DNA from: Candidatus Woesearchaeota archaeon
Lineage (GTDB): Archaea > Nanobdellota > Nanobdellia > Woesearchaeales > GW2011-AR9
NCBI GenBank assembly: GCA_945861715.1
Contig: CAMAVK010000004.1
Coordinates: 784-64,783, forward strand
Direction: 5' to 3'
Length of the DNA: 64,000 bases
The position numbers and the translations under genes were made by a program. Shown in pieces: positions 7,504 to 47,458 of this stretch (positions are counted from its first letter, which is position 1; every line of letters starts with the position of its first letter). The notes beneath the pieces were generated by a model, which saw nothing but the letters and a program-made list of their open reading frames with translations, did not search any database and was not told where the DNA came from.

Positions 7504-8307
7504 TTACTCGGATTCTTGTCGTTTACGTAATATCAGTAATCCAATTATTCCACCTATTACCAATACTATTGCAATGATCCAAGGAGTATTACTTCTGGTG
7601 CTTTCGTTTTTGTTTATAAGCGAAGTAATTGTTATGTCTGCTTCTTGATCTTGAAGGTTTACACTATTTAGTGTTATTTGTAAATCGTTTGTTTTGTCTA
7701 GATCAATATCAATATCTTTTGACTCTTTTATGTTTAATGTTATTGTTTGTGGATTACTGCGAACGGTTATGGTTGCACTTGTGGGGGTAACCACATCTAT
7801 TGTTACTTCGTGGAGTTCTTCTATATTGGAGTTTGAGGTTGGGATGTTAAAATCCGCTTTTTCTCCTTGTTTAATAGAAGCTGTGACTTCTATAGTGTTT
7901 TCTGCTGCGATTGCGTTTCCTGCGGCTGCACGATTGTTGTTTTGATTATTAAATTGCAAATGTTGAATTCTTGGTTCTGTTGTTGGGGCAATTGGTGCTG
8001 GCGTATTTCCTTGAGTTGGTACTGTAGGTTGTTCAACAGCGGGTGCAGGAGTTGTCTTTTCAGGTGCTGGTTCGCTACTTGGTGTGGTGGTTATGTCTGC
8101 AGTGTTATCGGTGGTTGGTGATGAACTTGAACTGCTTGATGATCCTCCGCCACCACTAGAACTGCTTGATGAACTTGAACTGCTGCTTGAGCTGCTCGAT
8201 GAACTGCCTGAACCAGGTGAAGCTGGTCCATATGCGGCAAATACTACTCCACCAACTAATAGTGTGAGGATTAGATATGCTGCAATTTGTTTTAGTCTTG
8301 ATTTCAT
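7504..8307 (-). CDS. Secreted cell-surface protein: signal peptide, Ser/Gly run, Pro/Thr linker, beta domain, C-terminal TM anchor
   Basis: N-terminal hydrophobic signal, poly-Ser, PAPEKTTPAPA linker, and WIIAIVLVIGGIIGLLIL followed by RKR. Confidence 0.85.
   Translation of the reverse strand: MKSRLKQIAAYLILTLLVGGVVFAAYGPASPGSGSSSSSSSSSSSSSSSSSGGGGSSSSSSSSPTTDNTADITTTPSSEPAPEKTTPAPAVEQPTVPTQGNTPAPIAPTTEPRIQHLQFNNQNNNRAAAGNAIAAENTIEVTASIKQGEKADFNIPTSNSNIEELHEVTIDVVTPTSATITVRSNPQTITLNIKESKDIDIDLDKTNDLQITLNSVNLQDQEADITITSLINKNESTRSNTPWIIAIVLVIGGIIGLLILRKRQESE
8120..8215 (-). repeat. Low-complexity Ser/Gly codon repeat inside the surface protein gene
   Basis: Repeated gaacttgaactgc / gatgaact units on the + strand encode SSSS...GGGG...SSSS. 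Confidence 0.8.
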
Positions 8308-8308
8308 T

Positions 8309-9955
8309 TTAACATCCCCACTCTGCTGGCACTTGCCATATAGTGGTGTTTAGTGTTGTGTTGTACAATAACCTCGTTGAACTGGAAGTTTTGTTGGTAC
8401 AGTTTCCAAGGCTTGCTGAACATTGCCATAATTCACTTACATTACCTGGAATTCCAATTTGTAATTTTGTTGGTCTAAATGAGTTTATTAGCTCTTGACA
8501 TTTCGATGTTCCTAGACCAATGAATTTCCCAGTTGATGTGGAGTTGAAGGCAATGTCGTTTCCTGCTGTAAAGTTTTGGGCTGAGCTGCTTACTTTACTT
8601 CCCAGGCTTGCGTTGACTAATACTATACGCCAATATTGACTACCTGTTGAATTTGGATTCTCAATTATCATGTTGAAACTTTTGGATTGGGTGTAGTTTA
8701 GTTGTATACCTGTTGAGGTATTGGCATTCATATCTTGTTTTGTTCCATCTGGCAGTTCAAATGTAAATTTCATATTTCCCATTGGATCAGATGCTATAGC
8801 ACCATTTTGTGTTTGGAAGGGAAATGTAAACGTACTTGAACAAGATTTACAACTGGCAAAACTGTTTTTGGTCGTAAAATTTAAACATCCACTTATCGCA
8901 CAGTTACTTGAGATGTCACATACTTTGGTTTTTAAGTAATAAGTTGTTGCATTTGTCAAAGTATAAGGGAGACGTTGCGGGTTGAAGCTGTAGCTATCAA
9001 TTGTTCCATCATGCCATGTGTTGTAGTCTATTTTTCCTGAGTCTAGTAATCCATTGTCTAGAATCGTTGCGTTTAGGGTAGTACATGAACTATCGTTATA
9101 ATAAAATTGGATAGTACCATTTGCAGGTTCACTGGTATCATAGGTAATGAAGGCACTATCGGGAAATGTATCAGATTTAAACCATGTTATTTTTGGTGCT
9201 GTTTTATCGTTTGGATCAATTGCAAGTGTTCCACCACAAAAGAAGGAATCAGTTTTACAACCGGAATCAGTACAATCGGTTAAGCCGTCTGCGTCGTTAT
9301 CAATATTATCACCACATTGGAATCCTACTTCATTAGGAGTGTAACCAAATTTAAGAAAATTTGAGCAATCAGGATCCATACTGGCTATTAATCCATCACC
9401 ATCTGCGTCTCCACCGGAGTTTTCACAATCTTCAAATTTAAAGTCAAATGATCCTTGGGTGTAATAATATGGTCCGTCATTATCTACAATTAAACTATCA
9501 TTTGAACTGTTCCCAGAGGTAATATAGAGGCGGAGGTCTTTTGATTTATTGAACAAGTTTCTAAATTTGAATAATTCTGTTTTTTCAATTCCTATTACTG
9601 GTCCGCTTACTTTGCCACACATTAATTGTGAGCTTACACCTAATGGAATTGGCACTGGTCCCCATGAACCATTCACACATTGATATGATGCTTTGGTTTC
9701 TTGTAAATTGGTTGTCCATTTTCCAGAGTATTTAAATGAGAATTCGTACCCTGTATTGTTTGGATTATCTCGACTTGCACAATGGTTTGTGCTGTTTCCG
9801 TCAGCGTCAAAATACCAGATGTACGTTGCGTTTCTATCACCTGTTCCAGGTTGGAACATGAAGTTTCCACCGTCTCCATCAGAACCGGAAGGGCGCACTG
9901 GAATATTTTTACATGTTGCTGCTAAACTAAAATTACTTACAGTCATTCCAATCAT
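8309..9955 (-). CDS. Cys/Asp-rich surface protein, C-terminal part (Ca-binding-like DxDxDG motifs, FN3-like domain)
   Basis: Motifs DADGDGLIASMDPDC and CGDNIDNDADGLTDCTDSGC, plus FN3-like DSAFITYDTSEPANGTIQFY...TTYYLKTKVCDISSN. It is in frame with the upstream ORF. Confidence 0.75.
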   Translation of the reverse strand: MIGMTVSNFSLAATCKNIPVRPSGSDGDGGNFMFQPGTGDRNATYIWYFDADGNSTNHCASRDNPNNTGYEFSFKYSGKWTTNLQETKASYQCVNGSWGPVPIPLGVSSQLMCGKVSGPVIGIEKTELFKFRNLFNKSKDLRLYITSGNSSNDSLIVDNDGPYYYTQGSFDFKFEDCENSGGDADGDGLIASMDPDCSNFLKFGYTPNEVGFQCGDNIDNDADGLTDCTDSGCKTDSFFCGGTLAIDPNDKTAPKITWFKSDTFPDSAFITYDTSEPANGTIQFYYNDSSCTTLNATILDNGLLDSGKIDYNTWHDGTIDSYSFNPQRLPYTLTNATTYYLKTKVCDISSNCAISGCLNFTTKNSFASCKSCSSTFTFPFQTQNGAIASDPMGNMKFTFELPDGTKQDMNANTSTGIQLNYTQSKSFNMIIENPNSTGSQYWRIVLVNASLGSKVSSSAQNFTAGNDIAFNSTSTGKFIGLGTSKCQELINSFRPTKLQIGIPGNVSELWQCSASLGNCTNKTSSSTRLLYNTTLNTTIWQVPAEWGC

Positions 9956-10864
9956 CTATCTGTCGAAGTCGTCCATTAATCCTACATCTAACACATCTAA
10001 ATGGGGATAAATAGTATTATTTGAGCTGTCTGTTCCCAAAATTGTTGGTTGTTTGTTTCCAAGTTGGTTTACGAAGTTAGCATCTGATTTTGATTGACAC
10101 CATCCGGGGAATTCAGATGAGCTTACGTTGTTTGAGGCTTTTTGATCTACAAAGTAGGTACATGTGGTATTCATTTGACCATTACATTTTGTTTGATTTC
10201 CATTGCCGTTAAAACATCCTCCACTAAATGCGGTTGCTTCACATGTGCCTGAAATTTGTTCACAGAGTCCTTTGGTAATGGTGGTGTTTGCACAGCTTGA
10301 TGAACTTAGGCTAAAACAGGATGGTTGACAGTTACCAGCTGGGTTAAATTGTGTATTCCATGAACAGATTTGTGTTGGTTGTCCTGCAATACTAAAGTTT
10401 GCTTCACAAGCAGCTTGACTATTTCGCCTGCTTGCGTTGCTGTTACATTGTGAGAAGACTACTGGTTCACACCATCCACTTTGTCCTCCTGGTCCTGAAA
10501 AACCACTGCTTCCACTATTCCAACCACATGCGGTATTTGTTGTACATGCTGATAGGTTCTGGGATTGAAAACAGGAACTAAAGAGTGTTTCATTTTGCAT
10601 ACATAATGGTGTACTTGCGGTTTGGAATGAACATCCTGCAGTTGCGTTACATCCTGCAGAATTTCGCCCTTGTGCTCCACATTGAGCTCCTGGGAAATCA
10701 CAGTGACCTGAACTTCCTGCTCCGAATTGTTGATCAAATCCATCACGGAGCCATTGACATCCATTGGTTGTGAATTTCTTAATGTCGGAAGAATTAAATA
10801 TGCAGTTGAGGTAGTTATGGTATGCGATATCTTTCAAAACTTGGTGTGCGTGAAGTTCGTGCAT
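8309..10864 (-). pseudogene. Probable single large Cys-rich surface protein gene interrupted by one in-frame TAG (9956-9958) and lacking its 5' end
   Basis: The junction reads GAC TTC GAC AGA TAG ATG ATT GGA in one frame. The upstream part has Cys-rich modules, no signal peptide, and runs into the pgk start. Confidence 0.55.
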
Positions 10865-16106: not shown

Positions 16107-17291
16107 TTAATCTAAAAATTCTTTGTTTTTAATCTTTTCAGGGAGGTATTTCTCTGAGATGAAGGAAATTCCTTTGGATGAGAGAGCTTGGATTTCTACT
16201 TTGTTGCCGAATTCTTTCATCATTTTGAATTGGCGTTGCCATTCTTTGTTTTTTTCAAACCATTCGTAGTTTTGCATTTGTTTTAGTCTGGCGGTATCTT
16301 GATCTGTTAGTTTGATGAAGTGGCGTTTAAGGTCGTAGTTGATTACGTCATCGCAGGTAATCCCAATGAATTTTACACCAGGGATGGCCATTTCTGAGGC
16401 CATATGAGCTAATGAGATTGATCCATATTTAATTACACTGTAGATGTACCATCCCCATGGGTCGTTATCAGCCAAGACAAAAATGGGTAATTTGTGTTCG
16501 TTACTTAGTCGTTGGAGAAGTCGTCTAATACCTCTTGTGGTTTGTCCTTGGGATGACATGATTAAACAACTTTGTTTTTCCCAGAATCGGTCTTCATGCA
16601 AACGTTCCCATACGGCAGCCTTTTCCATATACAAAATGTATTTGGCGTCTACTTTTTTGAATTTTATATTTTCTACGTTACTTGGGATTGACCATCCACC
16701 TGAACCTAATCTGGACCAATCAATGGTATCTCCTGAATCTTCAATGATTACTTTTCCTGCAACGGAGCCCATTTTGTTTGCGTTGACGTGCAGTTGTTCA
16801 CGACTGAAATTGGTGATTATTTCAAGGTCTTCAATTGCTTTATCAGATTCGGTTTGTTCGTCTACTACGTTTAATTTGGTATTTGGGATGGTACGCTTCG
16901 CCATATAAAATACGTCTCGCAGACTAGCATGTTTTTTTACATCAAGAAGATTTTTACAGATAGATGCCACTTCTATTGTTTGCAAGAATTTTTTTGTGTG
17001 GGATGCGTTAAAGAAGAATCGTTGTGCTTTTTTGTCCCCGAGGGTGAGGGTTTTATTTTCCTTGTCATAGATGACGTTGCTTAAGCCTCTTACTGATAAT
17101 TCAATTTTGGGATTATTTCCTAATTGAATATCTTTTACAATTTCTTTTCCAATATTGACGAGTTCTTTTGTGACGGGAGTGTTAGCTGGGATGTATGGGA
17201 CGTGATGAGAATCATCGCCCGTTTGGTTAGATGATGCTTTGGCTGGATCTAGTTTTTGTTGTCCATTTTCTTGCGTTTTTTTTGCTGCCAT
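16107..17291 (-). CDS. top6A: DNA topoisomerase VI subunit A
   Basis: Motifs SLRDVFY (catalytic Tyr), EQTESDKAIEDLE, TOPRIM YMEKAAV and LADNDPWG, and KVEIQAL. Confidence 0.98.
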   Translation of the reverse strand: MAAKKTQENGQQKLDPAKASSNQTGDDSHHVPYIPANTPVTKELVNIGKEIVKDIQLGNNPKIELSVRGLSNVIYDKENKTLTLGDKKAQRFFFNASHTKKFLQTIEVASICKNLLDVKKHASLRDVFYMAKRTIPNTKLNVVDEQTESDKAIEDLEIITNFSREQLHVNANKMGSVAGKVIIEDSGDTIDWSRLGSGGWSIPSNVENIKFKKVDAKYILYMEKAAVWERLHEDRFWEKQSCLIMSSQGQTTRGIRRLLQRLSNEHKLPIFVLADNDPWGWYIYSVIKYGSISLAHMASEMAIPGVKFIGITCDDVINYDLKRHFIKLTDQDTARLKQMQNYEWFEKNKEWQRQFKMMKEFGNKVEIQALSSKGISFISEKYLPEKIKNKEFLD

Positions 17292-17356
17292 GTTATTGTG
17301 TTAATTGTTTTTTTATTGTGTTAGGGTGAATAATTGACTTGTTACATATAACTCAT

Positions 17357-19033
17357 TTACATGTAATCTTCTTCTTCGCTGTTATGTTCTTTGTCATCTA
17401 GGGGTGTTTTTGGTTTACGTGTGAATTTGACCGCTTCTTGACTTTCATCGACTTCTCCTTTGAGTGATTCCATTTGGGCCATCTTTTCTACTATTGTTTC
17501 TTTTGCTGTCATTTCTTCTAGTTTGTCAATAAGCTCATTTTTATTTGCGCCAGTTAATCTTGCGAGGGCGTCTGCTACTTCTGGGATATATTTTTCAAAC
17601 ATATTTGCTCGTTCAAGGAGGGCTGCGGTTTTTTGCTTTTTATGGACATATGTTTGTAATTTTCGTCCTCCATCTTGGAGTGCAAGTTTGATTTCTTTTA
17701 TAATCTCAGGGTATGATGCGAGTGCTTCTTTGGATTCAGAGGTGAATGGAACCCATACTGATGCGATGTGGAGTAAGACAGTTAATGGACCAGTTGGAAG
17801 AGCTCCGTTGCTTTGTTGAAGGCCATATGGTTTCCAATTTGTGGTCACAACGGCTTTACTTAGTGCACATGCTCCTTGTTGGTAGAGTAGGGGTACTTTG
17901 TTTGCAAATCTAAATAGTGTTGCAAGTTCGTCTTTTGGTTGATTTCCACCATAGGCCATTCCCACTTCTATTTGAAATGGATTTCCTCGATAAACAAAAA
18001 CTGGTCTTGTGACGGCACAATAAAATTCCGCATTTATTTCTTTTTTGAGACTTTTTTCAAGTAATTCGTGTCCAATAGGGCTTAAACATTCTGTTGGAGG
18101 GGCTTGAATTTTACTTTTTTGAATTCCTTTGTATAATTGTTCAGCTTGTTCTCTGGACATTTTTTCGGGATTATTTGATGGTAATAGGGCTGAATTTTCA
18201 CAAATCTCTTTGGCAGTTCCGTCTGTTACTTTGGAGAATTCGATAATGAGAAATTCTTTGAGCGTTTTTGCTTTTGTTAAACTTAACATTTTGATTAAAC
18301 GACCAAGTTCTACTCCGTACGGGTGTGGTTTAATCTCTTTTGCTTCAGTTGGAAGGATGTCGGTTGCTCTGGAATAAATAGTTTGGGTTGCTTCTGGATT
18401 TGTATAAATAATTGTTAAGTGCGGATTGACAATTGCGGTTTGTTTGAGGTATTCATCTACTGATTGTCGTCCTTTTTGATAGGCGGAATCCATGTCTAAT
18501 TCTATTCTTATACCATGTGTTTTTCCGGGCCAATCAATGTCTCGTTCTTCGAGGATGATAGGATCATTTGTTTGGGTGTCTATTTTAAGTTTGATTAAGA
18601 ACGCTTCATTTGTACTTGCAATTTTTGATCGGATGGTTGCAGGTTTTCCACTGGTTAGTTGAGCGTAAAGAACGGCTGCTGAGATTCCAATACCTTGCTG
18701 ACCTCTTGTTTGGGAGAGTTTGTGAAATTTTGAACCGTATAATAATTTTGCAAATATTTTTGGAAGTTGTTTTTTGATAATTCCTGGACCATTATCTTCG
18801 ACGATGATTCGAAATCTTGTTTCTTCAAGTTGAATGAGCTCTACGTTTATTTCGGGTAGAATGCGCGCTTCTTCACATGCGTCCAGCGCGTTATCAACAG
18901 CTTCTTTGATGGTTGTTAATAGAGCTTTACGTGGGTTGTCAAAACCTAAGAGATGTCGGTTTTTTTCGAAGAACTCGGCTATGGAAATATCTCGTTGTTT
19001 TGTTGCTAATTCTTCAGCGCTCTTTTGAACCAT
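17357..19033 (-). CDS. top6B: DNA topoisomerase VI subunit B
   Basis: GHKL motifs [22 protein letters not shown] and [16 protein letters not shown], plus [15 protein letters not shown]. Confidence 0.98.
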
Positions 19034-19251
19034 GTGTTGGGTGGGATTGCGAGGGGTTTATAAAATTTTGTTTCGAGTAGTGGGTGAATATTTTTGGCGA
19101 ATTGAGCTTACTGAATGATTTGTCATGTTTTGTATTTAGAGTGAAATGTGGCGGTGATAGCGTCAATAAAAATGGCATTTGATTGGGTAATATTGAATGG
19201 ATATTGTTATTGATTAAGGTAATTTGATATCTCATTAGTTGTTAATTTGAT

Positions 19252-19791
19252 TCAACTTCCTTCAAACAGATTATCTTTACGGCGTTTTTCTAAGAATTGG
19301 TATACTGTTTTATGCATTGCACCGTTTACTAGCATAGCCATGGCTTCCCTTGCAGTTGATACGTTCATGGTGTCACCAATGATGGAAATTGTTTTTCCAT
19401 AAATTGAGATGTGGGTGTCAGTTAGGCGTTCTACTTCTTCACGTGCTTTTCCACCGGTTCCTATCACTCGTGATTTGAGACGTTCCATAACGTTTTTGTT
19501 TTTTCCTGCGGCGTCTTTTAGATTAATAATTTCTAATGTGTATTCAGTGTTGGTTAAGAGAAGAGCTGATTTTGGATTGAATCCTCTACCAATTGCTTGG
19601 ACCACTTCTCTAGCCGTGAAAAGGTTCATTCCGTCGTCACCAAGAATATTTACTTCACCTTCGGTTGTGATTTGAAGTTGAACTTTGAGTGCTTCTTCGA
19701 TTTCTTTTTTGGTTTCGCCTTTTGGGCCAATAAGTACTCCTACTCGTTCTTGTGGTATTTTTATGTCGTAGGAAAATTCGTCTGAAGCCAT
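19252..19791 (-). CDS. KH-domain rRNA processing protein (Dim2/Pno1/Krr1 family)
   Basis: Two KH GxxG motifs (LIGPKGETKK, VIGTGGKARE), AIGRGF and GAMHKTVY. It sits in the conserved rio1-KH-top6B order. Confidence 0.95.
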   Translation of the reverse strand: MASDEFSYDIKIPQERVGVLIGPKGETKKEIEEALKVQLQITTEGEVNILGDDGMNLFTAREVVQAIGRGFNPKSALLLTNTEYTLEIINLKDAAGKNKNVMERLKSRVIGTGGKAREEVERLTDTHISIYGKTISIIGDTMNVSTAREAMAMLVNGAMHKTVYQFLEKRRKDNLFEGS

Positions 19792-19871
19792 CTGTTCTTA
19801 CTTCTTTGCGATGACTTTTAAAGGTTTGGGTGGAGTTTTTGATAATTATTAAAAGTGTATTTAGAATAATC

Positions 19872-20651
19872 TCATACTAAATCTACTGGTCTGGATTTAT
19901 TTCGTTTTAGTTTTCGTGTTTCGGTGTCTTTTTGACGTGTGGCTCTGTCAGTCATCATTTGGTCGTAGATTTCTTGCGGGTCATTTTTTAGACCAAGTTT
20001 TTTGAAATGGTTACATACATTTTCAAGGTCACGTCTTAGAAGTTCTCGACAATTAGGTGTTTTTGTAAGAGTTGATTGTGAGAAGTCAATAAGAATTGGT
20101 TTTTCTTCATCGTTTAAGATGTTGAATGCTGAGAGGTCACCGTGCACGAGTCCTGCGATGTATAGTTTTTTAATTTGTACTATAGTTTGGTCAAAAAAAT
20201 CTTTGGGATTTTTTGGATCTTGATCTTTGAGAGTATTTGCAGGTTCGCCTTTTCCTACCATTTCTTCAATGAGAATATTTTGCATGAAATTGAGTGGTTT
20301 TGGTACGTTGATTTTTGCTGCGTAGGCTTTGTGGAGATTTTTGAATTCTCGTTGTGTCCATGCAAAAATGATTTGTCGTTTGTGACTTTTTAGATAATCA
20401 TACCGTGGATCTTTTCTAATATAATCATACATTCTGTTGAAGTCACAGTTTTGTAATCGGTAGATTTTAATGATGATATTTTTTCTTCCTTTTCTGGCTA
20501 CAAACACATTGGATTCCTTACCTACTTTGATGGGGATTAATGGTTCTTCAAAAACATCGCGTGACTGGAGTTCGAAGAGGTTTCGTTTGGTAAATTCGTC
20601 AAATACTCCTTTGTCTGTTTTGAATCGTTCCTGATATTTGAGAGTGACCAT
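19872..20651 (-). CDS. rio1: RIO1-type serine kinase/ATPase
   Basis: Motifs GKESNVF, IKIYR, WTQREFKNL, LVHGDLSAFNIL and IDFSQS. Confidence 0.96.
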   Translation of the reverse strand: MVTLKYQERFKTDKGVFDEFTKRNLFELQSRDVFEEPLIPIKVGKESNVFVARKGRKNIIIKIYRLQNCDFNRMYDYIRKDPRYDYLKSHKRQIIFAWTQREFKNLHKAYAAKINVPKPLNFMQNILIEEMVGKGEPANTLKDQDPKNPKDFFDQTIVQIKKLYIAGLVHGDLSAFNILNDEEKPILIDFSQSTLTKTPNCRELLRRDLENVCNHFKKLGLKNDPQEIYDQMMTDRATRQKDTETRKLKRNKSRPVDLV

Positions 20652-20833: not shown

Positions 20834-23335
20834 TTATATCAGATTTAATTGTTGGTTTTGGGCCAATATTCTTTTGATGTCTGCAAATGTTCGTTCTGCT
20901 TTGGTTTGATATATATCTAAAGCAGGTGGATGTCCTTCATTTATTGGCCTTAGTATGGCACGGACTCCGGTTGTTGATTTGGTTGTGTGTATATGTTGTG
21001 TTCCAGCGGCGTAGGTTACGTACATGCTGGGGGGGTAGGGGTTGATTATTTTGTCATGCAGTTCTATGAGGTAGGCGTGTGCATAGATGTCTTTTGTTTG
21101 ACTTAGTATGACTTCGAGTTCTTTTTTTGCATCCGGTGAGAAATGGTCATGAATTCGATGTTTCATTTGTTGGAATGCTATTTTTGTTTCCGATGAGGCA
21201 GTGGAGGTGTTTAGGATTTGGTTGAATTCTTCTTTATAGAAACTTCGTGTTTTTTGAGTGATATAGTATGCTGCAATTGGGAGTTGTCCTGTATAATATT
21301 GTTCGAGTTGTTCGTTTAAGTTGTGGAGTATTTTTGGGTGTGACTCATGGTTGAAGAATTGGTCAATGATGGCTTGAAGTGTAACTTTTTCAAAATCTGT
21401 GCGGGTGTGAAAGGTTGCGTTTATTCCTTGATATATTCTTGGATATGGTGTTTGTGCTGCTAAGTTTATGGGGTGTGGATCCGTTACGAATCGGCCCGGT
21501 GAGAGGGATAGTACTGGGCCTGAACCCAGGTATACTCCCATTCCATTTTTTTCTAATGTACTGGCGTCAATTTCTTTTTCTAGCAGGTAGAGAAGAGGAC
21601 TTGAATTGATGTAGCCTTGTTGCTGAATTCTTGCATGCACACGTTGAATGTTGGTTGTGAGGTTAGTCATGAAGTTTTGTATTTGTTGAGGTTTGAGGCC
21701 GTAACGTTTGCTTAGATTTCGTAGCGCGTTGGTGATTTCGTCAGTTGGGACTTTGGTTTTGAGTCTGGTTGCTTGTTCAAATAATGGTCTTGTGATTTCT
21801 TGAAGGCTGTTGAAATAATCCATTTTTATTATTGGGTCGTTGGTTTCTTGCGCTGCGCGGTATAGGGTGGTGTTTTGCAGAAATTCTTGTGCTGCGTGGA
21901 GCGCGGGCGTTAGTGATATCACATATGCCGTTTCTATGAAACCTTGTTTGAATTTGAGTGCTTGTGTTGTTGTTGTTTTTTGGGTATGCGGGTGTGTTGT
22001 TTTTTCTTGGTTTGGTGTTGTCGTTGTTTTTTGTTCAATAGTTTTTTGTGTGTGGGTTAAGATTGCATTATGGATATATTCTTTCGCGGGGATATTTCGA
22101 ATTCCTGTGTGAATATTTTTTCTAGAAGGGTATCCTTTGGTGTAGAAATGTTGGCGTTCAAGAAAATCGTTTACAATGGTAGGATGTGATGTTGCACTGA
22201 TTGTATCGGGGTCTCGGCCGAAAAAATGAGCGAGGTTAGCCACGATTGGACGTATTTCAAGGGCGAGGTTTTGTGCGTGAATGCCATCCATGATACAATA
22301 TGTTGCGAGGGTTTCGAAAACCTGCTGGTTCCCTGCTTTTGCTTGAGCTAGAAGAATTTCTTGTTCGTCATAGTCTATGGTTTTTTCGAACCCTACTAAT
22401 GTTTCTAGTTTTGTGTTTTGAAATAAGGATCGGTGATTTTTTGCAAATTTGTGTGTGTCAAGGGTGAAGCGTCCTTGTGTTATTACTTTTCCTAAGCCTT
22501 GCACTGATTTGATAAGGGGGCGTTTTCCTTGCGTTCCTGGAGTGTAAGTTTTTGTGATGTTTCTTATTTTGATTTGGTCAAAAGACATGATGTTGTGGCC
22601 AAAGATCCATAAGGGGTCGTCAGTGTGTATCAGTTCGGTTAGAATTTCTCCGAGGTCCTGCTGCGTGCGATATCGGAGGAGGGTTATGTTTTCTAGATCA
22701 GGGCTCTTGTTTGCTTGTTGAATGGTTCTTAATTGTGTTTGGTTGAAGGGGAGATTGTGGAGGAGAATGTGGTGATTTTGTGAGAGGTAGATGGCCATGA
22801 AAATTTGGTCTTTTCCTTGTTTCCATCCATCGAGCTCGATGTCTAATGTGACATGTGTGTCGTTGATTATGGATTCTATTGGTGGGTGGAGGTTGTATTG
22901 GGGTGGGGTGATTATTGTGGGTGGAAGATGCGAGGGGTTTTCTATGGTGGTACAGGGTGGGTAGAGGTAGCGAAGATAGGTACTTGGGGGATATTGTAGA
23001 TGTCGGGTGTGGTATGATGGGTTTTTCGTTACGAATGGTGCGTCAAGAAGGGTTTTTGTGTCCTTTGCTGTATCTAAGGTAAGAATGCGATTTGGATAAT
23101 ATGGGATTTCATTGGTTGTGTATGGAGTGCCTTTGAGGAATTCTTGAAGTGATGTTTTGAGTTTGGTTGCTTCTATATCTGAAATTGGACTTGTGAAAAA
23201 ACGATGAGGGATGTTGGCAAGGAGGTGATACGTTGCACCAATCATTGTTTTAGGATTGAATTCTCGAATGGTGATTATTGTTTGGTCGCCTTTGATTGGG
23301 TGGGTTGGACGAATATTTGTAATGTACCAATGCAT
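20834..23335 (-). CDS. Family-B DNA polymerase homolog: intact 3'-5' exonuclease motifs, apparently inactivated polymerase
   Basis: ExoI LDIELD, ExoII GHNIMSFD, ExoIII YCIMD, and thumb-like RTDFEK and YVTY...LDIY. No DFxSLYP, KxxxNSxYG or YGDTDS is present. Confidence 0.8.
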   Translation of the reverse strand: MHWYITNIRPTHPIKGDQTIITIREFNPKTMIGATYHLLANIPHRFFTSPISDIEATKLKTSLQEFLKGTPYTTNEIPYYPNRILTLDTAKDTKTLLDAPFVTKNPSYHTRHLQYPPSTYLRYLYPPCTTIENPSHLPPTIITPPQYNLHPPIESIINDTHVTLDIELDGWKQGKDQIFMAIYLSQNHHILLHNLPFNQTQLRTIQQANKSPDLENITLLRYRTQQDLGEILTELIHTDDPLWIFGHNIMSFDQIKIRNITKTYTPGTQGKRPLIKSVQGLGKVITQGRFTLDTHKFAKNHRSLFQNTKLETLVGFEKTIDYDEQEILLAQAKAGNQQVFETLATYCIMDGIHAQNLALEIRPIVANLAHFFGRDPDTISATSHPTIVNDFLERQHFYTKGYPSRKNIHTGIRNIPAKEYIHNAILTHTQKTIEQKTTTTPNQEKTTHPHTQKTTTTQALKFKQGFIETAYVISLTPALHAAQEFLQNTTLYRAAQETNDPIIKMDYFNSLQEITRPLFEQATRLKTKVPTDEITNALRNLSKRYGLKPQQIQNFMTNLTTNIQRVHARIQQQGYINSSPLLYLLEKEIDASTLEKNGMGVYLGSGPVLSLSPGRFVTDPHPINLAAQTPYPRIYQGINATFHTRTDFEKVTLQAIIDQFFNHESHPKILHNLNEQLEQYYTGQLPIAAYYITQKTRSFYKEEFNQILNTSTASSETKIAFQQMKHRIHDHFSPDAKKELEVILSQTKDIYAHAYLIELHDKIINPYPPSMYVTYAAGTQHIHTTKSTTGVRAILRPINEGHPPALDIYQTKAERTFADIKRILAQNQQLNLI

Positions 23336-23679
23336 GTTATGTATAATGATTTCATTTTAAACTGGATTTGTGGTTTTGGAAAGATATTTCATAGCAAGCA
23401 TGTTTTAAGCAAATGAGGATTAGTTAGTACTTGAAAGTGACATATTTAGCAAAAGATTTATATAGTCGTTGTCTTTTGATAGTAGTTAACACCTAAAAAC
23501 CACCTCTTTTCCTCGGCGAACTGATTTATTAGTTTGCTGGGGTTTTTCCTATTTTTCTTGCTTTGTGATTTATTGTCAATCACTTCATTTTTACCTTTGA
23601 TTCACCAAATAAAGTTATATTTTGGTTTTTTCTATTTTGTACCGACACATTTATATAATAGGCTTTATTATACTCGTTT

Positions 23680-23757
23680 GCCCGGCACAGAGAGTACCTG
23701 TGGGAGCCTACGGCATGGTCCAAGTCATGAACGCAGGGGTTAGTGGTGCGGGCGTCA
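23680..23757 (+). ncRNA. Putative small structured RNA (long hairpin, H/ACA-guide-like architecture)
   Basis: GC-rich island in an AT-rich spacer. Pairings gcccg-gcac/gtgcgggc and cctgtg/cgcagg. TATA-like TTTATATA at 23650-23657. Confidence 0.5.
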
Positions 23758-24128
23758 TTTACCAAATATCCATAGTTACATTGTATAATTAGATTGACAT
23801 TTTTCAGTTTGGTTATACGATAATAAAAATAACAAATTTGTTTCGATTACGATATGTTGTTGTCATTGCTTGCAAAAAAAATAAATCCTTATCACATTCA
23901 TCATATATCATTGTAGTTCGTTTAGGTTAGTGTCAAGACGGTTAGAATTGGTATAGCTAGGTTTATTTTTTCTGGAAGTACTTTGTGGATTGTTTGGTTT
24001 ATGAAGGTATGGTTAGAACTATACCTATTAAACCGATTACACATGAGTATAATTTTGATTCATTTCCGTTAAGAGATGTTTTCATATTGTTTCATTAAAA
24101 TTTCGAGCAAGAGCTCGTGGAGGACTTT

Positions 24129-25610
24129 ATGGCAAAGATTAGCCCAGTTGCGGCAAAATATATTGTACATTCAACTATCACTATTGATGGTATTGTAGAT
24201 CGACCAGATGTTATTGGTGCGATTTTTGGACAAACTGAGGGATTGCTTGGTGCAGACTTAGAATTACGTGAGTTGCAGCGAAGTGGTCGAATTGGACGTA
24301 TTGAAGTTAATATGAATACGGTTTCTGGTAAGACAACTGGTGAGATTATTATACCAAGTAGTTTAGATAAGACTGAGACAGCAATTGTTGCGGCTGCTCT
24401 TGAGATTATTCAACGTATTGGTCCGTGTAACGCGAAAATTGAAGTTCATAAGATTGAAGATGTTCGTACATCGAAGCGACAATTCGTTATTGAAAGAGCT
24501 AAGGAACTTCTTCGTGAGCTTACTGAGGAAACTCTTCCAGATTCGCAAGAAATTGCAGATGAAGTTGCTCAATCAGTTCGTATGATGGAAGTAGGCGAAT
24601 ATGGTAAGGAACGACTTGCGTGTGGCCCGGCTATTGAAGAAAGCGATGAGGTTATTCTTGTTGAAGGTCGAGCAGATGTATTGAATCTATTAAAACATGG
24701 TTTCAAGAACGTTATTGCAATGAATGGAACGTCTGCTCCACAGACGATTCGTGAACTTAGTCGACGAAAGACGATTACCGTGTTTGTTGATGGGGATCGT
24801 GGCGGAGATTTAATTGTTCGTGAATTGCTTGCGAATGCAGAAATTGATTTCGTTACCAAAGCACCAGATGGGAAAGAAGTTGAAGAACTGGCGAAAAAGG
24901 AAATTCATAAAGCGATTCGTTCACGGATTACCGCTGAACAAGCTAAGATGGATTTGGGTATTGATGAGCATGGTCAACTTAAAGATCAAGAGGAAACTCT
25001 TCGACATCAACCTTTTAGAACGCAAAAGAATGTTGGGTCAGTTCAAATTAACCCGAATTACCACGCTCAAGCTGGTTCTGCTCCATCGCATTCACCAGTT
25101 GGTCAAATGGGATATGCTGCTCATTCTGCGCAGGGTATGGTTGCTGCAGTAAAGAAAACTGAGAAAGTTGATTCTACTCCAATGGTTGCTCCTGTAAAGC
25201 CGCAATCGAGTGTTGCTGTGAATTCTTCTCGAAGCGTTGGTGGGCCAGTTGTTCCTAATGGTGCTTCTCGACCCCGTGAGATGATTAAGGAAGTTGTTGT
25301 TCCTAAGAAGGCGGGTTTGTCTGATGAGGAAAAGAAGTTGTTTAAAGCAACACTTGAAGATATGTTTGGAACTCGAGGAGCTTGCATATTTGATCATAAA
25401 CTTGCAATTCTTGGAAAAGTTCCTTTGTCTGAACTTCCATCTACTATTAAGAGTTTGAATGGCGGTGTGTATGCTATTGCTCTTGATGGCGCGGTTGAAA
25501 CTGAACTTGTTAAGTTAGCTGAGAAGATTAACGTAACTTATCTTGTGTGTTCAAGTTCAAAGAATAAGGATCCAACGAAGATTCAGATTTTAACAGAAGA
25601 TAAGTTGTAG
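24129..25610 (+). CDS. dnaG: Archaeal DnaG (bacterial-type primase, exosome-associated)
   Basis: Motifs GIVDRPDVIGAIFGQTEGLLG, LRELQRSGRIGRI, TOPRIM ILVEGRADVLNL and FVDGDRGG, and APDGKEVEEL. Confidence 0.97.
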   Translation: MAKISPVAAKYIVHSTITIDGIVDRPDVIGAIFGQTEGLLGADLELRELQRSGRIGRIEVNMNTVSGKTTGEIIIPSSLDKTETAIVAAALEIIQRIGPCNAKIEVHKIEDVRTSKRQFVIERAKELLRELTEETLPDSQEIADEVAQSVRMMEVGEYGKERLACGPAIEESDEVILVEGRADVLNLLKHGFKNVIAMNGTSAPQTIRELSRRKTITVFVDGDRGGDLIVRELLANAEIDFVTKAPDGKEVEELAKKEIHKAIRSRITAEQAKMDLGIDEHGQLKDQEETLRHQPFRTQKNVGSVQINPNYHAQAGSAPSHSPVGQMGYAAHSAQGMVAAVKKTEKVDSTPMVAPVKPQSSVAVNSSRSVGGPVVPNGASRPREMIKEVVVPKKAGLSDEEKKLFKATLEDMFGTRGACIFDHKLAILGKVPLSELPSTIKSLNGGVYAIALDGAVETELVKLAEKINVTYLVCSSSKNKDPTKIQILTEDKL

Positions 25611-39272: not shown

Positions 39273-40187
39273 TTATTGTACCGTTTCTCTGATTCGTAAT
39301 TTTTCTTGAATTAATTCTTTGTATGTATATTCAAGGTTTAGTTTTACGGATCTTGTGTAGAGATCAGCTTCAGCGAGTGATTGTTTTAAGCGGCATTGAA
39401 CTTCTGCGGTTCCGTCTTCAGCTAATCGTGCTTCGTTTTCTCTTCCGCCTGATTTACATTCCCATTTTTCTGGTTCGTCAATGGTGAATCCAATTTGATT
39501 GAATCTGGTATCAAACTCTGCACCGGGTGTGGTTGATTTTCCAGTTCCTGCATTTTTAATTGCGATTCGAAGTACGATCACTCCTTTACCTGCTGATTCT
39601 TGGGTTACGGAGGTTACAGTTATTGGAGCGCCTGAGACACTAAATGTTTTTGCACCTTTTACTTCACATACGTTCTTGTCGGTTATGTCCCCTTTGAAAC
39701 ATGCATCGTCTACAATGAGATAGGTGTGATAATCATAGGCATATTCAAGATTCCAATTTACATCAGATATACCCGTTACTTTGTTTTTGTATTTTGCTCT
39801 TGATGATGTTGTAAAGGTAACTGTTTCTTCTCCTCCTGTTGGGTTGAATTCAGAAATTTTTTCGATGTTCTCTTTGTTTGGAATTGTCCAGCTTGGTATT
39901 CCATCATAATCTTGTGGGGCTGGTCCAAGGAGTCGTAGTGATACTTTACCCGGAGCTAGTGTGTCTTCACCTTTGTTTTTTAATAATACGTCAATTGGAA
40001 AATCTTCGCTGTCAAAGATGGTGAATACTCCGTCTTCTTTGATGCTAAATGGTTCAAATGATGCTTGTAAACCTTCTGTGCCACCTATGAACGCGTTACC
40101 GCCTTTTGGAGCAGGAGCTTGATTTGAACATCCTACTACAAAAAGACTGATTATTACTAGAAATGTAATTATTGCTTTTTTCATCAT
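39273..40187 (-). CDS. Secreted lipoprotein-like protein, Ig-like/beta-rich
   Basis: Lipobox FVVGC, AFIGGTEGL and conserved Cys residues. Confidence 0.85.
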   Translation of the reverse strand: MMKKAIITFLVIISLFVVGCSNQAPAPKGGNAFIGGTEGLQASFEPFSIKEDGVFTIFDSEDFPIDVLLKNKGEDTLAPGKVSLRLLGPAPQDYDGIPSWTIPNKENIEKISEFNPTGGEETVTFTTSSRAKYKNKVTGISDVNWNLEYAYDYHTYLIVDDACFKGDITDKNVCEVKGAKTFSVSGAPITVTSVTQESAGKGVIVLRIAIKNAGTGKSTTPGAEFDTRFNQIGFTIDEPEKWECKSGGRENEARLAEDGTAEVQCRLKQSLAEADLYTRSVKLNLEYTYKELIQEKLRIRETVQ

Positions 40188-40366: not shown

Positions 40367-41329
40367 CTATTCTGGTGTTCGGACAATTCTTACACTTTGT
40401 GTTGTTGATGTTTTGTAACCGTAACTTAGATCTATTATAAGGGGTGTTTCGTATGCTGCTCCACTTGGAACTTCAGCACTACAAATAATTTTTCCGTTGT
40501 TTCCAGCAAGTCGTACGAGTCCGTCTCGTGGTTTACAATCCAATGGTTGGCCATTTCCGAATCTCACGCTGTAGATCACTCGGTTTAAATCTTCAAAGTT
40601 CCAATTGTTAAATCCACAATTTTGAATTTCAGCTGAATTTGAGAGAACTGTACCGCCACCAAAGGATTGCACGTTGATATCAAATGTCGCTCGATGACCA
40701 GCCATGGTGACACCTACATATGATATCCCCACTGGTCCTCCTTGTCCGCCACCTAGACTTACTGCTCCGGGTGTACAGGCTTGTTGAGAGGTTTCGAAGT
40801 TGTAATTTTGTGGGTCAATACATACAGTTGCAGTTGCGGTTGAAGTGTAGCGGTAACAGGTATCAACTACTAAGTTTGGTGAGTATTCATTTACACCTAT
40901 TGGAAGGTTTATAGTTGAACTTTCCATTACTAGTTGGTTAAATGATCCATCTAGGTTGTAAATGTTTTTTCCATCGAGTGTTCCGTAGTTGTCTCCACAG
41001 GATCTTGGTACGTCAAGACCACCAGGGATGATATTGTGATCGAAGCCAGTTACGTGGATAAAACAGTCTTGAGGTTCTACGTTGGTTGAGCCTTTATTTT
41101 TTACTTCCATCATTAAGGATAGTTGTTGTCCGTCGAAGATAACTGATGGAAGATAATTTGGTACTGTTCGTGTTACAATTCCCTCGGTGCCACTTTGTGC
41201 TTCTTTCATTGCGCTTAGGGCATCTTGAGGAGTTGAGCCACTTCCTCCGGAACAACTTGTTAGTATTAGGAGTGTGAGTGTTAGGGTGATAAGAAGTATG
41301 GTGTTTTGACATCTAGACCTCTGTGACAT
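40367..41329 (-). CDS. Secreted lipoprotein-like protein, paralog of 39273..40187
   Basis: Lipobox ILTSC, SGTEGI, CYRYTSTA...VCID and GPVGIS. ATG at 41329 avoids overlap with the EamA gene. Confidence 0.85.
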   Translation of the reverse strand: MSQRSRCQNTILLITLTLTLLILTSCSGGSGSTPQDALSAMKEAQSGTEGIVTRTVPNYLPSVIFDGQQLSLMMEVKNKGSTNVEPQDCFIHVTGFDHNIIPGGLDVPRSCGDNYGTLDGKNIYNLDGSFNQLVMESSTINLPIGVNEYSPNLVVDTCYRYTSTATATVCIDPQNYNFETSQQACTPGAVSLGGGQGGPVGISYVGVTMAGHRATFDINVQSFGGGTVLSNSAEIQNCGFNNWNFEDLNRVIYSVRFGNGQPLDCKPRDGLVRLAGNNGKIICSAEVPSGAAYETPLIIDLSYGYKTSTTQSVRIVRTPE

Positions 41330-41424
41330 AGGGGTTAGGGAGAATGTAGGGATTATAAGATTTGTGGTTAGGGTGTGTGGATTTTGTGCGGTTTGGTTTG
41401 TTTGTTGTTTTACTTGTTTAAGGG

Positions 41425-42315
41425 TTAGCCTTTGAGAGTTAGGTAGCCTGCGAGTATCATGATTAGAAAAATCGTGCTTTTGTATGCTATTTGCTTTAGA
41501 TTTAGTTGTTCTTTGAAGTGGGGTATCCATCTGTGTAGGAGGATTGCATAGAACAGAGGGAAAAATACGCTAAATGATCCGACAGTTTCAATTAAGGTTA
41601 ATGGTGCAAGCCCAAGGCTGTACGTGTAGAGGGCCATGGCGATAAATGCGGCGAGTTCTAGGGTGATGAATATGTGAATTTTTTGTTTGAATTTTTTGTA
41701 ATTTGAGGTAATGTCTTTGCGGTGTTTTTTGATTAGCAATATTGGGAGAACGAGAAGTGTTGCGATGAATCCGCTGATGATAAATGCAGTTGCCCAGTTA
41801 AGATATTGATATGATATTTTGTAGAGGGTAATTTCGGCTGTGATGGCTAGACAACATAATATCATGTAGATGTATGACTTGTTGAATTGCATTTTTCGGA
41901 TGTCTTTTATCGTCAAAAGAGAGCTAGCTATGACAATAATTATGAAGCCGACGTATTGTGTTTTTGTTAGTGTTTCATCTAAAAATAGAAATGCGACAAT
42001 GGGAACGAATATTTTTCCTAAGGAAAATAATGCAACTACCGTTGATGTGTCGTCTAATTGGAGTGCACGATAATAGGGATAGAGAAAGAGAAGATTTGTG
42101 ATAGCTAGCCCTATTAAGATTGGCCAAGAATATAATGGAGGCCAAGTTGGCATTTGTATTAAAAGGATGAGGGGGGTAAATAGTAAGTTTAGAAGTGATG
42201 AGTAGAAAATGAGGGTTGGGATTCTTTTGAAGTGATGATTGGTTAGATAGTTGTCAAGGATGTTTGCGATACCAAAGAATGCGCCGCTTGTGAGGACTAG
42301 TATTATCCAATTCAT
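41425..42315 (-). CDS. DMT/EamA family transporter
   Basis: About 10 TM helices in two repeats, with YYRALQLDDTSTVVAL. Confidence 0.88.
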   Translation of the reverse strand: MNWIILVLTSGAFFGIANILDNYLTNHHFKRIPTLIFYSSLLNLLFTPLILLIQMPTWPPLYSWPILIGLAITNLLFLYPYYRALQLDDTSTVVALFSLGKIFVPIVAFLFLDETLTKTQYVGFIIIVIASSLLTIKDIRKMQFNKSYIYMILCCLAITAEITLYKISYQYLNWATAFIISGFIATLLVLPILLIKKHRKDITSNYKKFKQKIHIFITLELAAFIAMALYTYSLGLAPLTLIETVGSFSVFFPLFYAILLHRWIPHFKEQLNLKQIAYKSTIFLIMILAGYLTLKG

Positions 42316-46513: not shown

Positions 46514-47458
46514 TTAGTTAGCAAGTCTCTTTTCAATATCTGCGCGATATTCAACTGCTTTGAATTCTCCTTTGAAATAATCCAAGCGTGCACAGAGGGA
46601 TAATTTGTCAGCTAAGAGTCGCGCTGCTTTTCCTTTGTTATCTTTTGAGGCGTTGGCAACAATTGGATGGTTTATTATGATTCCATATTTTGGTGAACGT
46701 GCTCCTGTTTTTATGTGACGGAATAATGCTTTTTCGGCGCCAAAGAGTTGAATTGTTGAAGCGGGTAGCATGGCTAAATGTTTTAATGATCTTGCAAACA
46801 TCAATAATTTTGCGGCTATATTTGGTCCAGCTAATTCGGTGAAATTTGGTGCGTATTTTACCATTACCTGTTGGATGTAGTTTTCAGTTTCTTTTCGTAG
46901 TTCGAAAAGATCCATTACCTGTTTTGAGAGGAGTCTAATCGGTGCTCGGTCAACTTCACTTAATTCATGGCCCAATAGATTTGGCAAATTTAATTCCTTT
47001 TCTATCTCTTGGTTTGTCTTGGTGTAAATAAGTCTTGCATAGAAGAAGTGATCTTGGGTTTTATCTTCTAGTTCGGGGTATGATAATGCGTGCCATTCTC
47101 GTAATCGTTTAGCTAAGATGTTTACTGCTTTGTCAATTTCGTCCATTAGACCTACTGCTTGGATAATGAGGAAATCTTCGTTAACAGTTGCTTTGATTGC
47201 CGTTGTTGTGGTTTGCTCATTTGCTACTTGATAGAGTGAGATGTATTTTCTTTCTTTTAGAGAGATTAGGATTTTTGAGATTATTTCAGCTGGTGCTGCC
47301 GGAGTTTTAGGGTGTTTTTTTTGCATAACGGCTGCGCATTGTGTTGTAGTTTGGGTTGAAGTTATGAGAACTTCTTCTGTTATAACTCCCGATTCTTCAA
47401 CGAGAAAGGAGCCGATGATGTGGTTGAAAATGTACATATAGTTGTTATTCTGCCACAA
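46514..47458 (-). CDS. nop5: C/D box RNP protein Nop5/Nop56
   Basis: Motifs RLREWHALSYPEL, YAPNFTELAG, PASTIQLFGAEKALFRH, SPKYGII and GKAARLLA. Confidence 0.96.
   Translation of the reverse strand: MWQNNNYMYIFNHIIGSFLVEESGVITEEVLITSTQTTTQCAAVMQKKHPKTPAAPAEIISKILISLKERKYISLYQVANEQTTTTAIKATVNEDFLIIQAVGLMDEIDKAVNILAKRLREWHALSYPELEDKTQDHFFYARLIYTKTNQEIEKELNLPNLLGHELSEVDRAPIRLLSKQVMDLFELRKETENYIQQVMVKYAPNFTELAGPNIAAKLLMFARSLKHLAMLPASTIQLFGAEKALFRHIKTGARSPKYGIIINHPIVANASKDNKGKAARLLADKLSLCARLDYFKGEFKAVEYRADIEKRLAN

Follow-up and report, generated by a model that had tools for sequence, protein, structure and literature searches.

Results

A polymerase-like gene on a woesearchaeal chromosome

We examined a 64,000-nucleotide stretch of contig CAMAVK010000004.1 from a Candidatus Woesearchaeota archaeon (hereafter the window, at its full length), focusing on a polB-like gene that encodes an 833-residue protein, labelled P0001. 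A previous reading of the DNA letters, here called the original prediction, had proposed that this protein is a full-length homolog of family B DNA polymerases (PolB) with a live-looking proofreading exonuclease but a dead-looking polymerase palm. The window is part of an archaeal chromosome; it encodes an archaeal RNase P RNA, Nop56/fibrillarin and RFC subunits and carries a ribosomal protein operon. The polB-like open reading frame (ORF) is intact and starts with an ATG located 7 codons past an upstream in-frame stop. It is not a chance ORF, because 94 database clusters match its product. The P0001 sequence occurs in several lake-water metagenome DNA runs. Coordinates of the gene, its features and its neighbors are collected in Table 1.

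Homology to family B polymerases

The relationship to PolB is not apparent from P0001 alone. A Pfam search with the single protein returned only a sub-threshold match to DNA_pol_B_exo1 (E=0.0047, 16.8 bits against a cut-off of 23), and single-sequence searches of NCBIfam and PDB returned nothing relevant. No match was obtained when the window was searched by tblastn with the PolB of Pyrococcus furiosus (Pfu), and pairwise BLAST between P0001 and Pfu PolB was likewise empty. A 6-sequence profile found no match in PDB, and an AlphaFold2 model made with 6 sequences was poor (predicted local distance difference test, pLDDT, 52) and was set aside.

A word-indexed protein search identified 5 relatives at 33-54% identity, the sole named one being a Candidatus Woesearchaeota 'hypothetical protein'. 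An exhaustive search of 1.84 billion cluster representatives yielded 94 proteins at E<=1e-3 (51 at E<=1e-10 and 21 at E<=1e-30), most of them 700-1000 residues long; the family thus comprises at least 94 clusters at 50% identity. All named cluster members, distant ones included, are annotated as 'hypothetical protein [Candidatus Woesearchaeota archaeon]'. We constructed an alignment and profile (A2) of 78 full-length members, with a mean column identity of 12%, to which all counts out of 78 refer.

When compared with PDB, this profile matched the PolB enzymes of Thermococcales best (Pfu, Tgo, KOD, 9°N and Pyrococcus abyssi; E=7e-35 to 1e-28), with matches spanning profile positions 148-665 and residues 135-677 of those enzymes. 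Other family B polymerases were far weaker, including Pol delta (5e-17), Escherichia coli Pol II (8e-13) and the PolB3 of Pyrobaculum calidifontis (9e-8). AlphaFold2 supplied with the 78-sequence alignment returned a complete PolB architecture (pLDDT 90.8; predicted template-modelling score 0.91), uncertain only at residues 436-456 (a T/Q/K-rich insert), in a short loop at 110-113 and over the final few residues. The top Foldseek matches of this model in PDB were all family B polymerases (probability 1.00), and the near-full-length ones, again Thermococcales PolB, extended over ~920-940 aligned columns. The highest TM-scores (0.56/0.61) belonged to a DNA complex of P. abyssi PolB in edition mode, a likeness to the editing conformation that we regard as suggestive only. 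Finally, hhalign paired residues 1-833 of P0001 with residues 1-767 of Pfu PolB at a probability of 99.7, the Pfu reference sequence being 100% identical to PDB 3a2f_A.

By AlphaFold2, Foldseek, hhalign and profile comparison alike, the PolB domain order is present (N-terminal, exonuclease, palm, fingers and thumb). P0001 is therefore a true full-length PolB homolog, and the thumb-like C-terminus noted in the original prediction belongs to a complete PolB fold. The closest enzymes by sequence are the euryarchaeal ones of Thermococcales, and P0001 is probably of PolB3-type origin; profile scores stand at ~1e-34 for Thermococcales PolB, well ahead of Pol delta, Pol II and the crenarchaeal B3 enzyme.

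A conserved exonuclease site

The three motifs that had been read as those of a DEDDy exonuclease (LDIE, HN..SFD and YCIMD) align to ExoI, ExoII and ExoIII of Pfu PolB. The family carries the complete family B exonuclease signature, comprising DxE in ExoI, Nx2-3(F/Y)D in ExoII and Yx3D in ExoIII. Only four columns of the entire alignment are invariant (D165, E167, Y346 and D350), and all four are catalytic exonuclease positions; the two ExoII residues are nearly so (Table 1). Near-invariance of these residues at a mean column identity of 12% is a signature of selection on catalysis, and the pattern is that expected of a working DEDDy exonuclease.

A polymerase site without its ligands

Regular-expression searches for the patterns D..SLYP, K...NS.YG and Y.DTD found none in P0001 and none at the expected place in 97 relatives, in agreement with the reported absence of KxxxNSxYG and YGDTD. 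The segments aligned to the three polymerase motifs lack the Asp of motif A (DxxSLYPS), the motif B KxxxNSxYG and the motif C YxDTD, so that P0001, a homolog of family B polymerases, falls outside the functional definition of a polymerase.

For motif A, a palm beta-strand lies within the segment ETAYVISLTPAL; its best match is Pfu 394-407 (EKGLWENIVYLDFR), with S474 opposite the catalytic D405. Ungapped profile scans with both alignments paired strand 465-475 with Pfu 394-407 (z=4.0 and 3.4), and a separate hmmsearch agreed. Across the family position 474 is Tyr in 50/78 and Asp in a single member, and Asp occurs at positions 474, 475, 476 and 477 in 1, 0, 0 and 0 of 78 sequences, respectively. 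Immediately beyond, T476-P477-ALHAAQEFLQ aligns to Pfu IPGFIPSLLGHLLEER, with which the first fingers helix begins (IPGFIPSLL). The assignment of LTP to the motif A LYP in the original prediction is thus likely wrong; these residues probably open the fingers helix. From the palm Gly to the Lys at the fingers tip there are 42 residues in the family (range 29-48) versus 81 in Pfu. On the simplest reading, ~40 residues (Pfu ~406-447) have been lost, a segment that in Pfu contains the SLYPS helix with the steric-gate Tyr and the following hairpin.

Of motif B, none of the Lys, Asn, Ser, Tyr and Gly residues survives in P0001, such that the Lys, Asn and Tyr that bind the deoxynucleoside triphosphate (dNTP) are gone; the Lys position is E513 in P0001 and A/E/S/G across the family. 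In motif C, hhalign pairs I576-N577-S578-S579 with Pfu I540-D541-T542-D543, replacing D541 with N577 and D543 with S579, and the AlphaFold2 model retains the beta-hairpin (strands 575-578 and 583-585). N577 is present in 67/78 members, position 579 is Ser, Gly or Asn, and none of the 78 has an Asp anywhere in 575-579. Whichever register is adopted, P0001 appears to have no carboxylate at any predicted metal-ligand position, and none appears to be conserved family-wide.

DNA-binding elements and the C-terminal tail

Some of the elements by which PolB binds DNA appear to be retained, including a 'GRF' opposite the Pfu KRY, a conserved K/R at position 645 and the thumb. R615 and F616 are the residues kept within the former, and position 615 is R/K in 50/78 members. 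At the N-terminus, WYIT of P0001 aligns to DYIT of Pfu (Y4 opposite Y7), the remaining N-terminal hhalign alignment being of low confidence. In Pfu PolB, the uracil read-ahead pocket is formed by Y7, P36, Y37, V93 and F116, of which Y7 alone has an aligned counterpart in P0001. A low-complexity insert at 429-458, predicted to be disordered, is long only in P0001 and one relative (P0003), much shorter in another (P0002) and absent from other members.

The extreme C-terminus resembles a short PCNA-interacting-protein (PIP) box. Q..L[FW] forms the exact terminus of 18/78 relatives (QLSLF, QLNLF, QLDLF, QLKLF and others; binomial P ~1e-44). A relaxed PIP-like motif, Q-x-x-hydrophobic-hydrophobic, occurs within the last 9 residues of 32/78 versus 2.3% of internal 9-mers. 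The canonical 8-residue form, Qxx[LIMV]xx[FYW][FYWL], is rare. Hhalign sets the terminal Q of the family opposite that of the Pfu PIP box, and the tail is predicted to be flexible (pLDDT ~51). E. coli Pol II likewise ends in a QLxLF-type clamp motif. By its motif content, the tail appears to have the position and form of a sliding-clamp-binding peptide, and may bind PCNA.

Relatives and conserved gene order

One genome per GTDB species was scanned with a 20-sequence core alignment. This identified 14 loci from metagenome-assembled genomes (MAGs) labelled Woesearchaeota, Nanoarchaeota or 'archaeon'. As revealed by tblastn with the neighboring proteins of the window, dnaG is divergent and upstream of the polB-like gene in 10 loci. 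Rio1, the KH gene and top6B lie downstream in six loci, joined by top6A in five of them; the sixth locus (L002) ends within top6B. Thus the order dnaG <-> polB-like -> rio1 -> KH -> top6B -> top6A is conserved across Woesearchaeota/Nanoarchaeota MAGs, and the arrangement described for the window, with rio1/top6 co-oriented downstream and dnaG divergent, was borne out by Pfam. Several small ORFs that flank the polB-like gene have no Pfam match.

Across these loci the identity of the PolB-like protein drops to 27-34%, versus 60-78% for DnaG and 65-84% for Top6B. Conserved synteny around so diverged a protein indicates old vertical inheritance and not a mobile-element remnant, and the polB-like gene is an old, vertically inherited, fast-evolving chromosomal gene. 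Searches against PHROG (phage families) and PADLOC (defence systems) gave no match, in agreement with this view, and a viral or defence origin was ruled out on that basis.

The chromosomal fragments at hand were also searched for other replicative polymerases. Tblastn with Pfu PolB found no canonical PolB in the window or in ~190 kb of related loci, which are genome fragments only. No PolD subunit was found among those ORFs of the window and the fetched flanks that were scanned with Pfam. Apart from the polB-like gene no ORF of the window exceeds 560 residues, and the large ORFs in these fragments are SNF2, lectin-like, P-type ATPase and intein-containing genes.

Two side observations concern the related loci. 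The third-party-annotation MAGs that carry six of them (L001, L004-L006, L012 and L014) are titled 'uncultured Methanosarcinales archaeon', which we suspect to be a placeholder or misassignment because their gene order and 60-78% DnaG identity tie them to Woesearchaeota MAGs. In two loci, a large ORF beside dnaG contains an intein with a LAGLIDADG endonuclease domain (L003, 640-2790, minus strand; L011, 1136-3808, minus strand).

Table 1. Features of the polB-like gene, its protein product and its neighbors, in window coordinates.
Feature	Position	Strand	Basis
Whole gene; 833-residue PolB-fold protein, exonuclease-intact and polymerase-dead by motif content	20834..23335	-	ORF, AlphaFold2, Foldseek, profile against PDB, hhalign
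N-terminal domain, ~residues 1-130	22946..23335	-	model secondary structure; low-confidence hhalign
3'-5' exonuclease domain, ~residues 155-375	22211..22873	-	weak Pfam DNA_pol_B_exo1, E=0.0047; aligned to Pfu 135-330
ExoI, D165-I-E167 (LDIE 164-167)	22835..22843	-	D165 and E167 in 78/78; Pfu D141/E143 (FDIET)
ExoII, GHNIMSFD 246-253	22577..22600	-	N248 in 73/78, D253 in 77/78; Pfu N210/D215 (YNGDSFD)
ExoIII, YCIMD 346-350	22286..22300	-	Y346 and D350 in 78/78; Pfu Y311/D315 (YSMED)
T/Q/K/H-rich low-complexity insert, residues 429-458 (…THTQKTIEQKTTTTPNQEKTTHPHTQKTTTTQ…)	21962-22051	-	pLDDT <50 for 436-456; alignment gaps elsewhere
Palm beta-strand G465-P477, putative motif A strand remnant; Pfu D405 -> S474	21905..21943	-	ungapped profile scan, hmmsearch
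Putative motif B remnant, E513-ITRPLFE-Q521; Pfu K488-LLANSFY-G	21773..21799	-	DPIIKM--DY aligned to Pfu DPIEKILLDY
Putative motif C hairpin remnant, Y575-I-N577-S-S579-P...L585	21581..21613	-	hhalign, column counts, AlphaFold2 beta-hairpin
KKRY-like region, VLSLSPGRFVT 608-618; Pfu FFVTKKRYAVI (KKRY DNA-binding region)	21482..21514	-	HMMER
Thumb domain, ~residues 634-826	20858..21436	-	YQGI...FEK... against Pfu TRGLEIVRRDWSEIAKE...; helical in model
C-terminal tail Q829-L-N-L-I833, short PIP/QLxLF-like	20837..20851	-	motif counts, hhalign
dnaG (Toprim primase-like), divergent, upstream	24117..25610	+	Pfam Toprim; adjoins the gene in 10 loci
rio1, downstream, co-oriented	19872-20651	-	Pfam
KH/Dim2-like gene, downstream, co-oriented	19252-19791	-	Pfam
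top6B, downstream, co-oriented	17357-19033	-	Pfam
top6A, downstream, co-oriented	16107-17291	-	Pfam
Downstream co-oriented block, rio1 to top6A	16107..20651	-	Pfam; same order in L002, L004, L008, L009, L011, L013

Conserved intergenic blocks and other features of the window

The 781-bp region between dnaG and the polB-like gene contains two nucleotide-conserved blocks (window 23428-23767, plus strand), found at the same position in L001, L003-L005 and L007-L012. They are 71-82% identical across loci, compared with 27-54% for the adjacent PolB-like protein. The two blocks look like small RNA genes transcribed toward dnaG, since a TTTATATA box precedes each on the plus strand (23457-23464 and 23650-23657). 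Neither Rfam at E<=1 nor tRNA calling returned a match for them, and single-sequence folding was no better than for shuffled sequences.

In the first candidate (sRNA-1, window ~23482-23547, plus strand), the single-stranded stretch AACACCU(C/A)AAAACCACCUCUUUUCC is nearly invariant and in most relatives contains two CACCUC elements, like the anti-Shine-Dalgarno sequence of 16S rRNA, the first of which is CACCUA in the window. A hairpin follows and then a U5 run; the hairpin arms vary in sequence and length between loci and are complementary by eye. From its sequence, this architecture appears to be that of a trans-acting regulatory RNA. The second candidate (sRNA-2, window ~23680-23756, plus strand, ~77 nt) has a closing stem of GCCCG...CGGGC plus CAC/GUG, and the strands of its internal loop, GAGAGUA and GGUUAGUG, are highly conserved and mostly invariant. 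Its upper stem (CCUGUG/CGCAGG) shows a few compensatory changes, and L003, L007 and L009 carry a variable apical insert of 23-43 nt. The putative hairpin with a pocket recalls an H/ACA-type guide, with no ACA box evident and a conserved UCA instead.

Across the window (1-64000), G exceeds C on the plus strand regardless of gene orientation, with a skew of +0.13 to +0.37 per 2-kb bin and one exception (8001-10000, +0.04). This suggests a replication-associated mutational asymmetry extending over the 64 kb with no switch point. Owing to the G excess, genes on the minus strand, the polB-like gene included, have a C/A-rich coding strand and encode T/H/Q/P/N-rich proteins; the low-complexity insert of P0001 may be a by-product of this composition.

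Elsewhere, a 559-residue ORF (44750-46429, minus strand) adjoining a Nop56/58-like gene (46514-47458) matches fibrillarin over its first ~220 residues and has no Pfam match over the other ~340, an unusually long fusion. Four ORFs on the minus strand likewise have no Pfam match at E<=1e-3 (8309-9955, 9956-10864, 40367-41530 and 39273-40187, encoding 548, 302, 387 and 304 residues, respectively).

Discussion

A PolB that may only edit

P0001 shares with the Thermococcales PolB enzymes the five-domain fold and its order, the ExoI/II/III residues, a KKRY-like region and the thumb, as well as a Q-initiated, putative clamp motif at the C-terminus, in the same place as the PIP box of Pfu PolB. Unlike those enzymes, it lacks the catalytic and dNTP-binding residues of motifs A, B and C together with ~40 residues after the motif A strand. 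A protein in which the exonuclease site, the thumb and basic palm and a clamp-type tail are kept, while the metal ligands and the dNTP pocket are destroyed, would be a PolB able only to edit. Together, these observations appear to suggest that P0001 descends from a PolB, probably of PolB3 type, that has turned into a PCNA-tethered 3'-5' exonuclease and has lost DNA synthesis, a reading to which we assign a probability of roughly 0.6. The overall picture of the original prediction, a live-looking exonuclease beside a dead palm, extends from P0001 to at least 78 full-length, diverged relatives. What the analysis shows is homology and fold, residue conservation and loss, the tail motif and the gene context; exonuclease activity, PCNA binding, substrate and cellular role, and with them the repurposing as a 3'-5' nuclease or trans-proofreader put forward in the original prediction, are inferred.

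In the mechanism that we propose, the C-terminal QxxL-type tail would dock the protein on PCNA at a primer-template junction, and the thumb and the KKRY-like, basic palm surface would grip the duplex in the way of an editing PolB. Once inside the exonuclease site (D165, E167, D253, Y346 and D350), the primer 3' end would be shortened by two-metal hydrolysis. Because the primer has no polymerase site to go back to, the protein would serve solely as a 3'-end editor working in trans, from which the trimmed end would be released to the real replicase. Candidate substrates are mismatched, damaged or ribonucleotide 3' termini left by non-proofreading enzymes such as primase and translesion or acquired polymerases; 3' ends arising in Okazaki maturation or repair may be alternatives. 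Going one step further, an ancestral replicative-type PolB of Woesearchaeales could have become a PCNA-tethered trans-proofreader or 3'-end editor working beside another replicase (PolD, which has its own DP1 proofreader, and/or a bacterial-derived B7 PolB), although we hold this scenario only tentatively, at somewhat less than even odds.

Several points weigh against this interpretation. The register of motif A differs between alignment methods, which place D405 opposite position 474, 476 or 414; T476 and N414, the alternatives to S474, are acidic neither in P0001 nor in the 20-member core family (0/20 at position 414). Among distant relatives, 33/78 have D or E at 414 beside a conserved Phe, and this D/E-F at 414-415 may be a vestigial 'DF'. 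A motif A remnant at 414-425, the register of the global hhalign alignment, found no support in the ungapped profile scans and was rejected. The tail of P0001 itself, QLNLI, is a weak form that lacks an aromatic residue. The rate of evolution of the protein, much higher than that of its neighbors, could also mean relaxed constraint. The strongest caution is PolB2 (Dpo2), which was likewise taken to be inactive from its sequence until weak polymerisation was demonstrated (PMC7544198, PMC8764526). However, PolB2 retains the Asp of motif A and one of the two in motif C, and the P0001 family retains none of them.

Alternative explanations

The rapid evolution of the protein, its dead polymerase site and its synteny with dnaG and top6 would also suit a non-catalytic replisome scaffold that bridges, for example, PCNA, primase and helicase, with the exonuclease residues kept for folding or DNA binding. 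There is precedent in the C-terminal half of Pol epsilon, an essential inactivated PolB module (PMC7544198, PMC2669801). In the known inactivated modules, however, whether PolB2, Pol alpha, Pol zeta or the C-terminal half of Pol epsilon, the exonuclease residues decay (PMC7544198), whereas in this family, at a mean column identity of 12%, all five catalytic positions are fixed or almost fixed in the 78 aligned sequences. We therefore consider a scaffold unlikely.

It is a little less likely again that P0001 is still a DNA (or RNA) polymerase with a remodelled site and non-canonical ligands, in the manner of PolB2/Dpo2 or the primer-independent PolB (piPolB), each short of one canonical Asp. 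Inactivity calls failed for PolB2/Dpo2, and piPolB lacks the first motif C Asp (PMC7544198, PMC8764526). Also in favor of this reading, N577 is strongly conserved (67/78), E649 (67/78, plus 4 with Asp) and E595 (41/78) are conserved acidic residues in or near the palm-thumb junction, and a D/E-F dipeptide persists at 414-415 of some distant relatives. Yet PolB2 and piPolB both retain the Asp of motif A and one of those in motif C, whereas the motif A position and both motif C positions are non-acidic throughout this family, and the Pfu residue opposite E649, in the thumb, is Ala. Motif B has also lost its Lys, Asn and Tyr, and ~40 residues, the steric-gate helix included, appear to be missing.

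DPANN archaea are generally reduced and salvage-dependent. A DEDDy exonuclease releases deoxynucleoside monophosphates, and a nuclease yielding mononucleotides for a cell with limited nucleotide biosynthesis, the DNA-scavenging variant of the original prediction, is conceivable on those grounds. This is the least favored of its variants and appears improbable, as it fits poorly with the retention of a full scaffold for binding DNA junctions, a clamp-binding-type tail and a location among replication, topology and ribosome-biogenesis genes, with no hint of secretion or bulk degradation. A decaying viral or mobile-element PolB remnant, or an annotation or assembly artefact, as the empty pairwise BLAST to Pfu PolB, the unusual composition and the low-complexity insert might suggest, is effectively refuted by synteny and conservation, the 833-residue ORF being intact here, with intact orthologs at the same chromosomal position in many MAGs, a high-confidence model, no PHROG or PADLOC match and the same sequence in several lake-water metagenome runs.

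Relation to known polymerase families

Archaeal PolB groups B1-B10 were defined by Kazlauskas et al. 2020 (PMC7544198); the text consulted describes no exonuclease-intact, polymerase-dead group among them, and the text of its supplement has no Woesearchaeota entries. In an earlier survey, Makarova et al. 2014 distinguished PolB1, PolB2 and PolB3 and described a polB3-dnaG neighborhood in crenarchaea (PMC4104785), which the location of the gene beside dnaG echoes. The literature that we searched, the PolB classification included, contains no description of the P0001 family, although coverage was limited and this is not proof of novelty.

Like the P0001 family, PolB2 (Dpo2) and the bacterial G2 group are divergent PolB paralogues; they were once called 'inactivated'. 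Their pattern is the opposite one, as the original prediction correctly held: PolB2 has no ExoIII and no conserved ExoI but retains a single motif C Asp (PMC7544198), whereas the P0001 family has an intact exonuclease and has lost the polymerase site. Their arCOG07300/RadA-like partners are also not among the identified neighbors of the P0001 gene (dnaG, rio1, KH and top6), several small flanking ORFs having no Pfam match. Membership in PolB2 was ruled out by the conservation of all Exo motifs, the lack of a motif C Asp and the different neighbors.

The B7 group is PolII-like, was acquired from bacteria, has a 'GWN' ExoII and is reported for Woesearchaeota/Pacearchaeota (PMC7544198). It shares its host lineage with the P0001 family but differs in its 'GWN' ExoII and conserved polymerase motifs (PMC7544198), compared with 'GHN' and no polymerase motifs here; the family profile also matches E. 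coli Pol II at E ~1e-13 versus ~1e-34 for Thermococcales PolB. B7/PolII-like membership was likewise ruled out, position 247 being His in 52/78 and Tyr, Phe or Gln in the rest listed, with no Trp among those listed.

The C-terminal module of Pol epsilon resembles P0001 in keeping a PolB fold for use in the replisome after loss of polymerase function. It differs in that this module, like the exonuclease domains of Pol alpha and Pol zeta, has lost its exonuclease site too (PMC2669801, PMC7544198), whereas P0001 is a stand-alone protein with the site kept. A parallel in selection is found in some prokaryotic PolX proteins. A 2026 survey of bacterial polymerases reports loss of the polymerase with retention of a PHP 3'-5' exonuclease, in family X only (PMC12926913). 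There, as here, selection appears to keep the exonuclease while the polymerase site decays, but family X with a PHP domain and family B with a DEDDy domain are unrelated folds. On the proposed reading P0001 would also be comparable to the DnaQ-type epsilon subunit of E. coli Pol III, a trans-acting DEDD-superfamily 3'-5' exonuclease with a QLxLF-type clamp tether. Epsilon, however, is a small DEDDh protein of one domain that binds its polymerase, whereas P0001 is an 833-residue DEDDy protein with a polymerase scaffold of its own, from an archaeon that has PCNA.

Implications

Known inactivated PolB modules, PolB2 as initially predicted among them, lose the exonuclease first, or both sites, and the P0001 family presents the reverse. 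The analysis fills a gap in annotation, since members are listed as 'hypothetical protein' and Pfam offers at most a sub-threshold exonuclease match. As a large, vertically inherited family, it would show that a PolB scaffold can be selected purely for the editing of DNA ends, and it may provide a natural 'editing-mode-only' PolB with which to study how primers partition between polymerase and exonuclease sites. If the proposed function is correct, this would be the first natural member of family B in which the exonuclease is kept and the polymerase lost, and an archaeal counterpart of bacterial epsilon made from an entire polymerase fixed in editing mode. The finding would then bear on how the tasks of replication and fidelity are split in minimal DPANN genomes among PolD, acquired PolBs and accessory nucleases.

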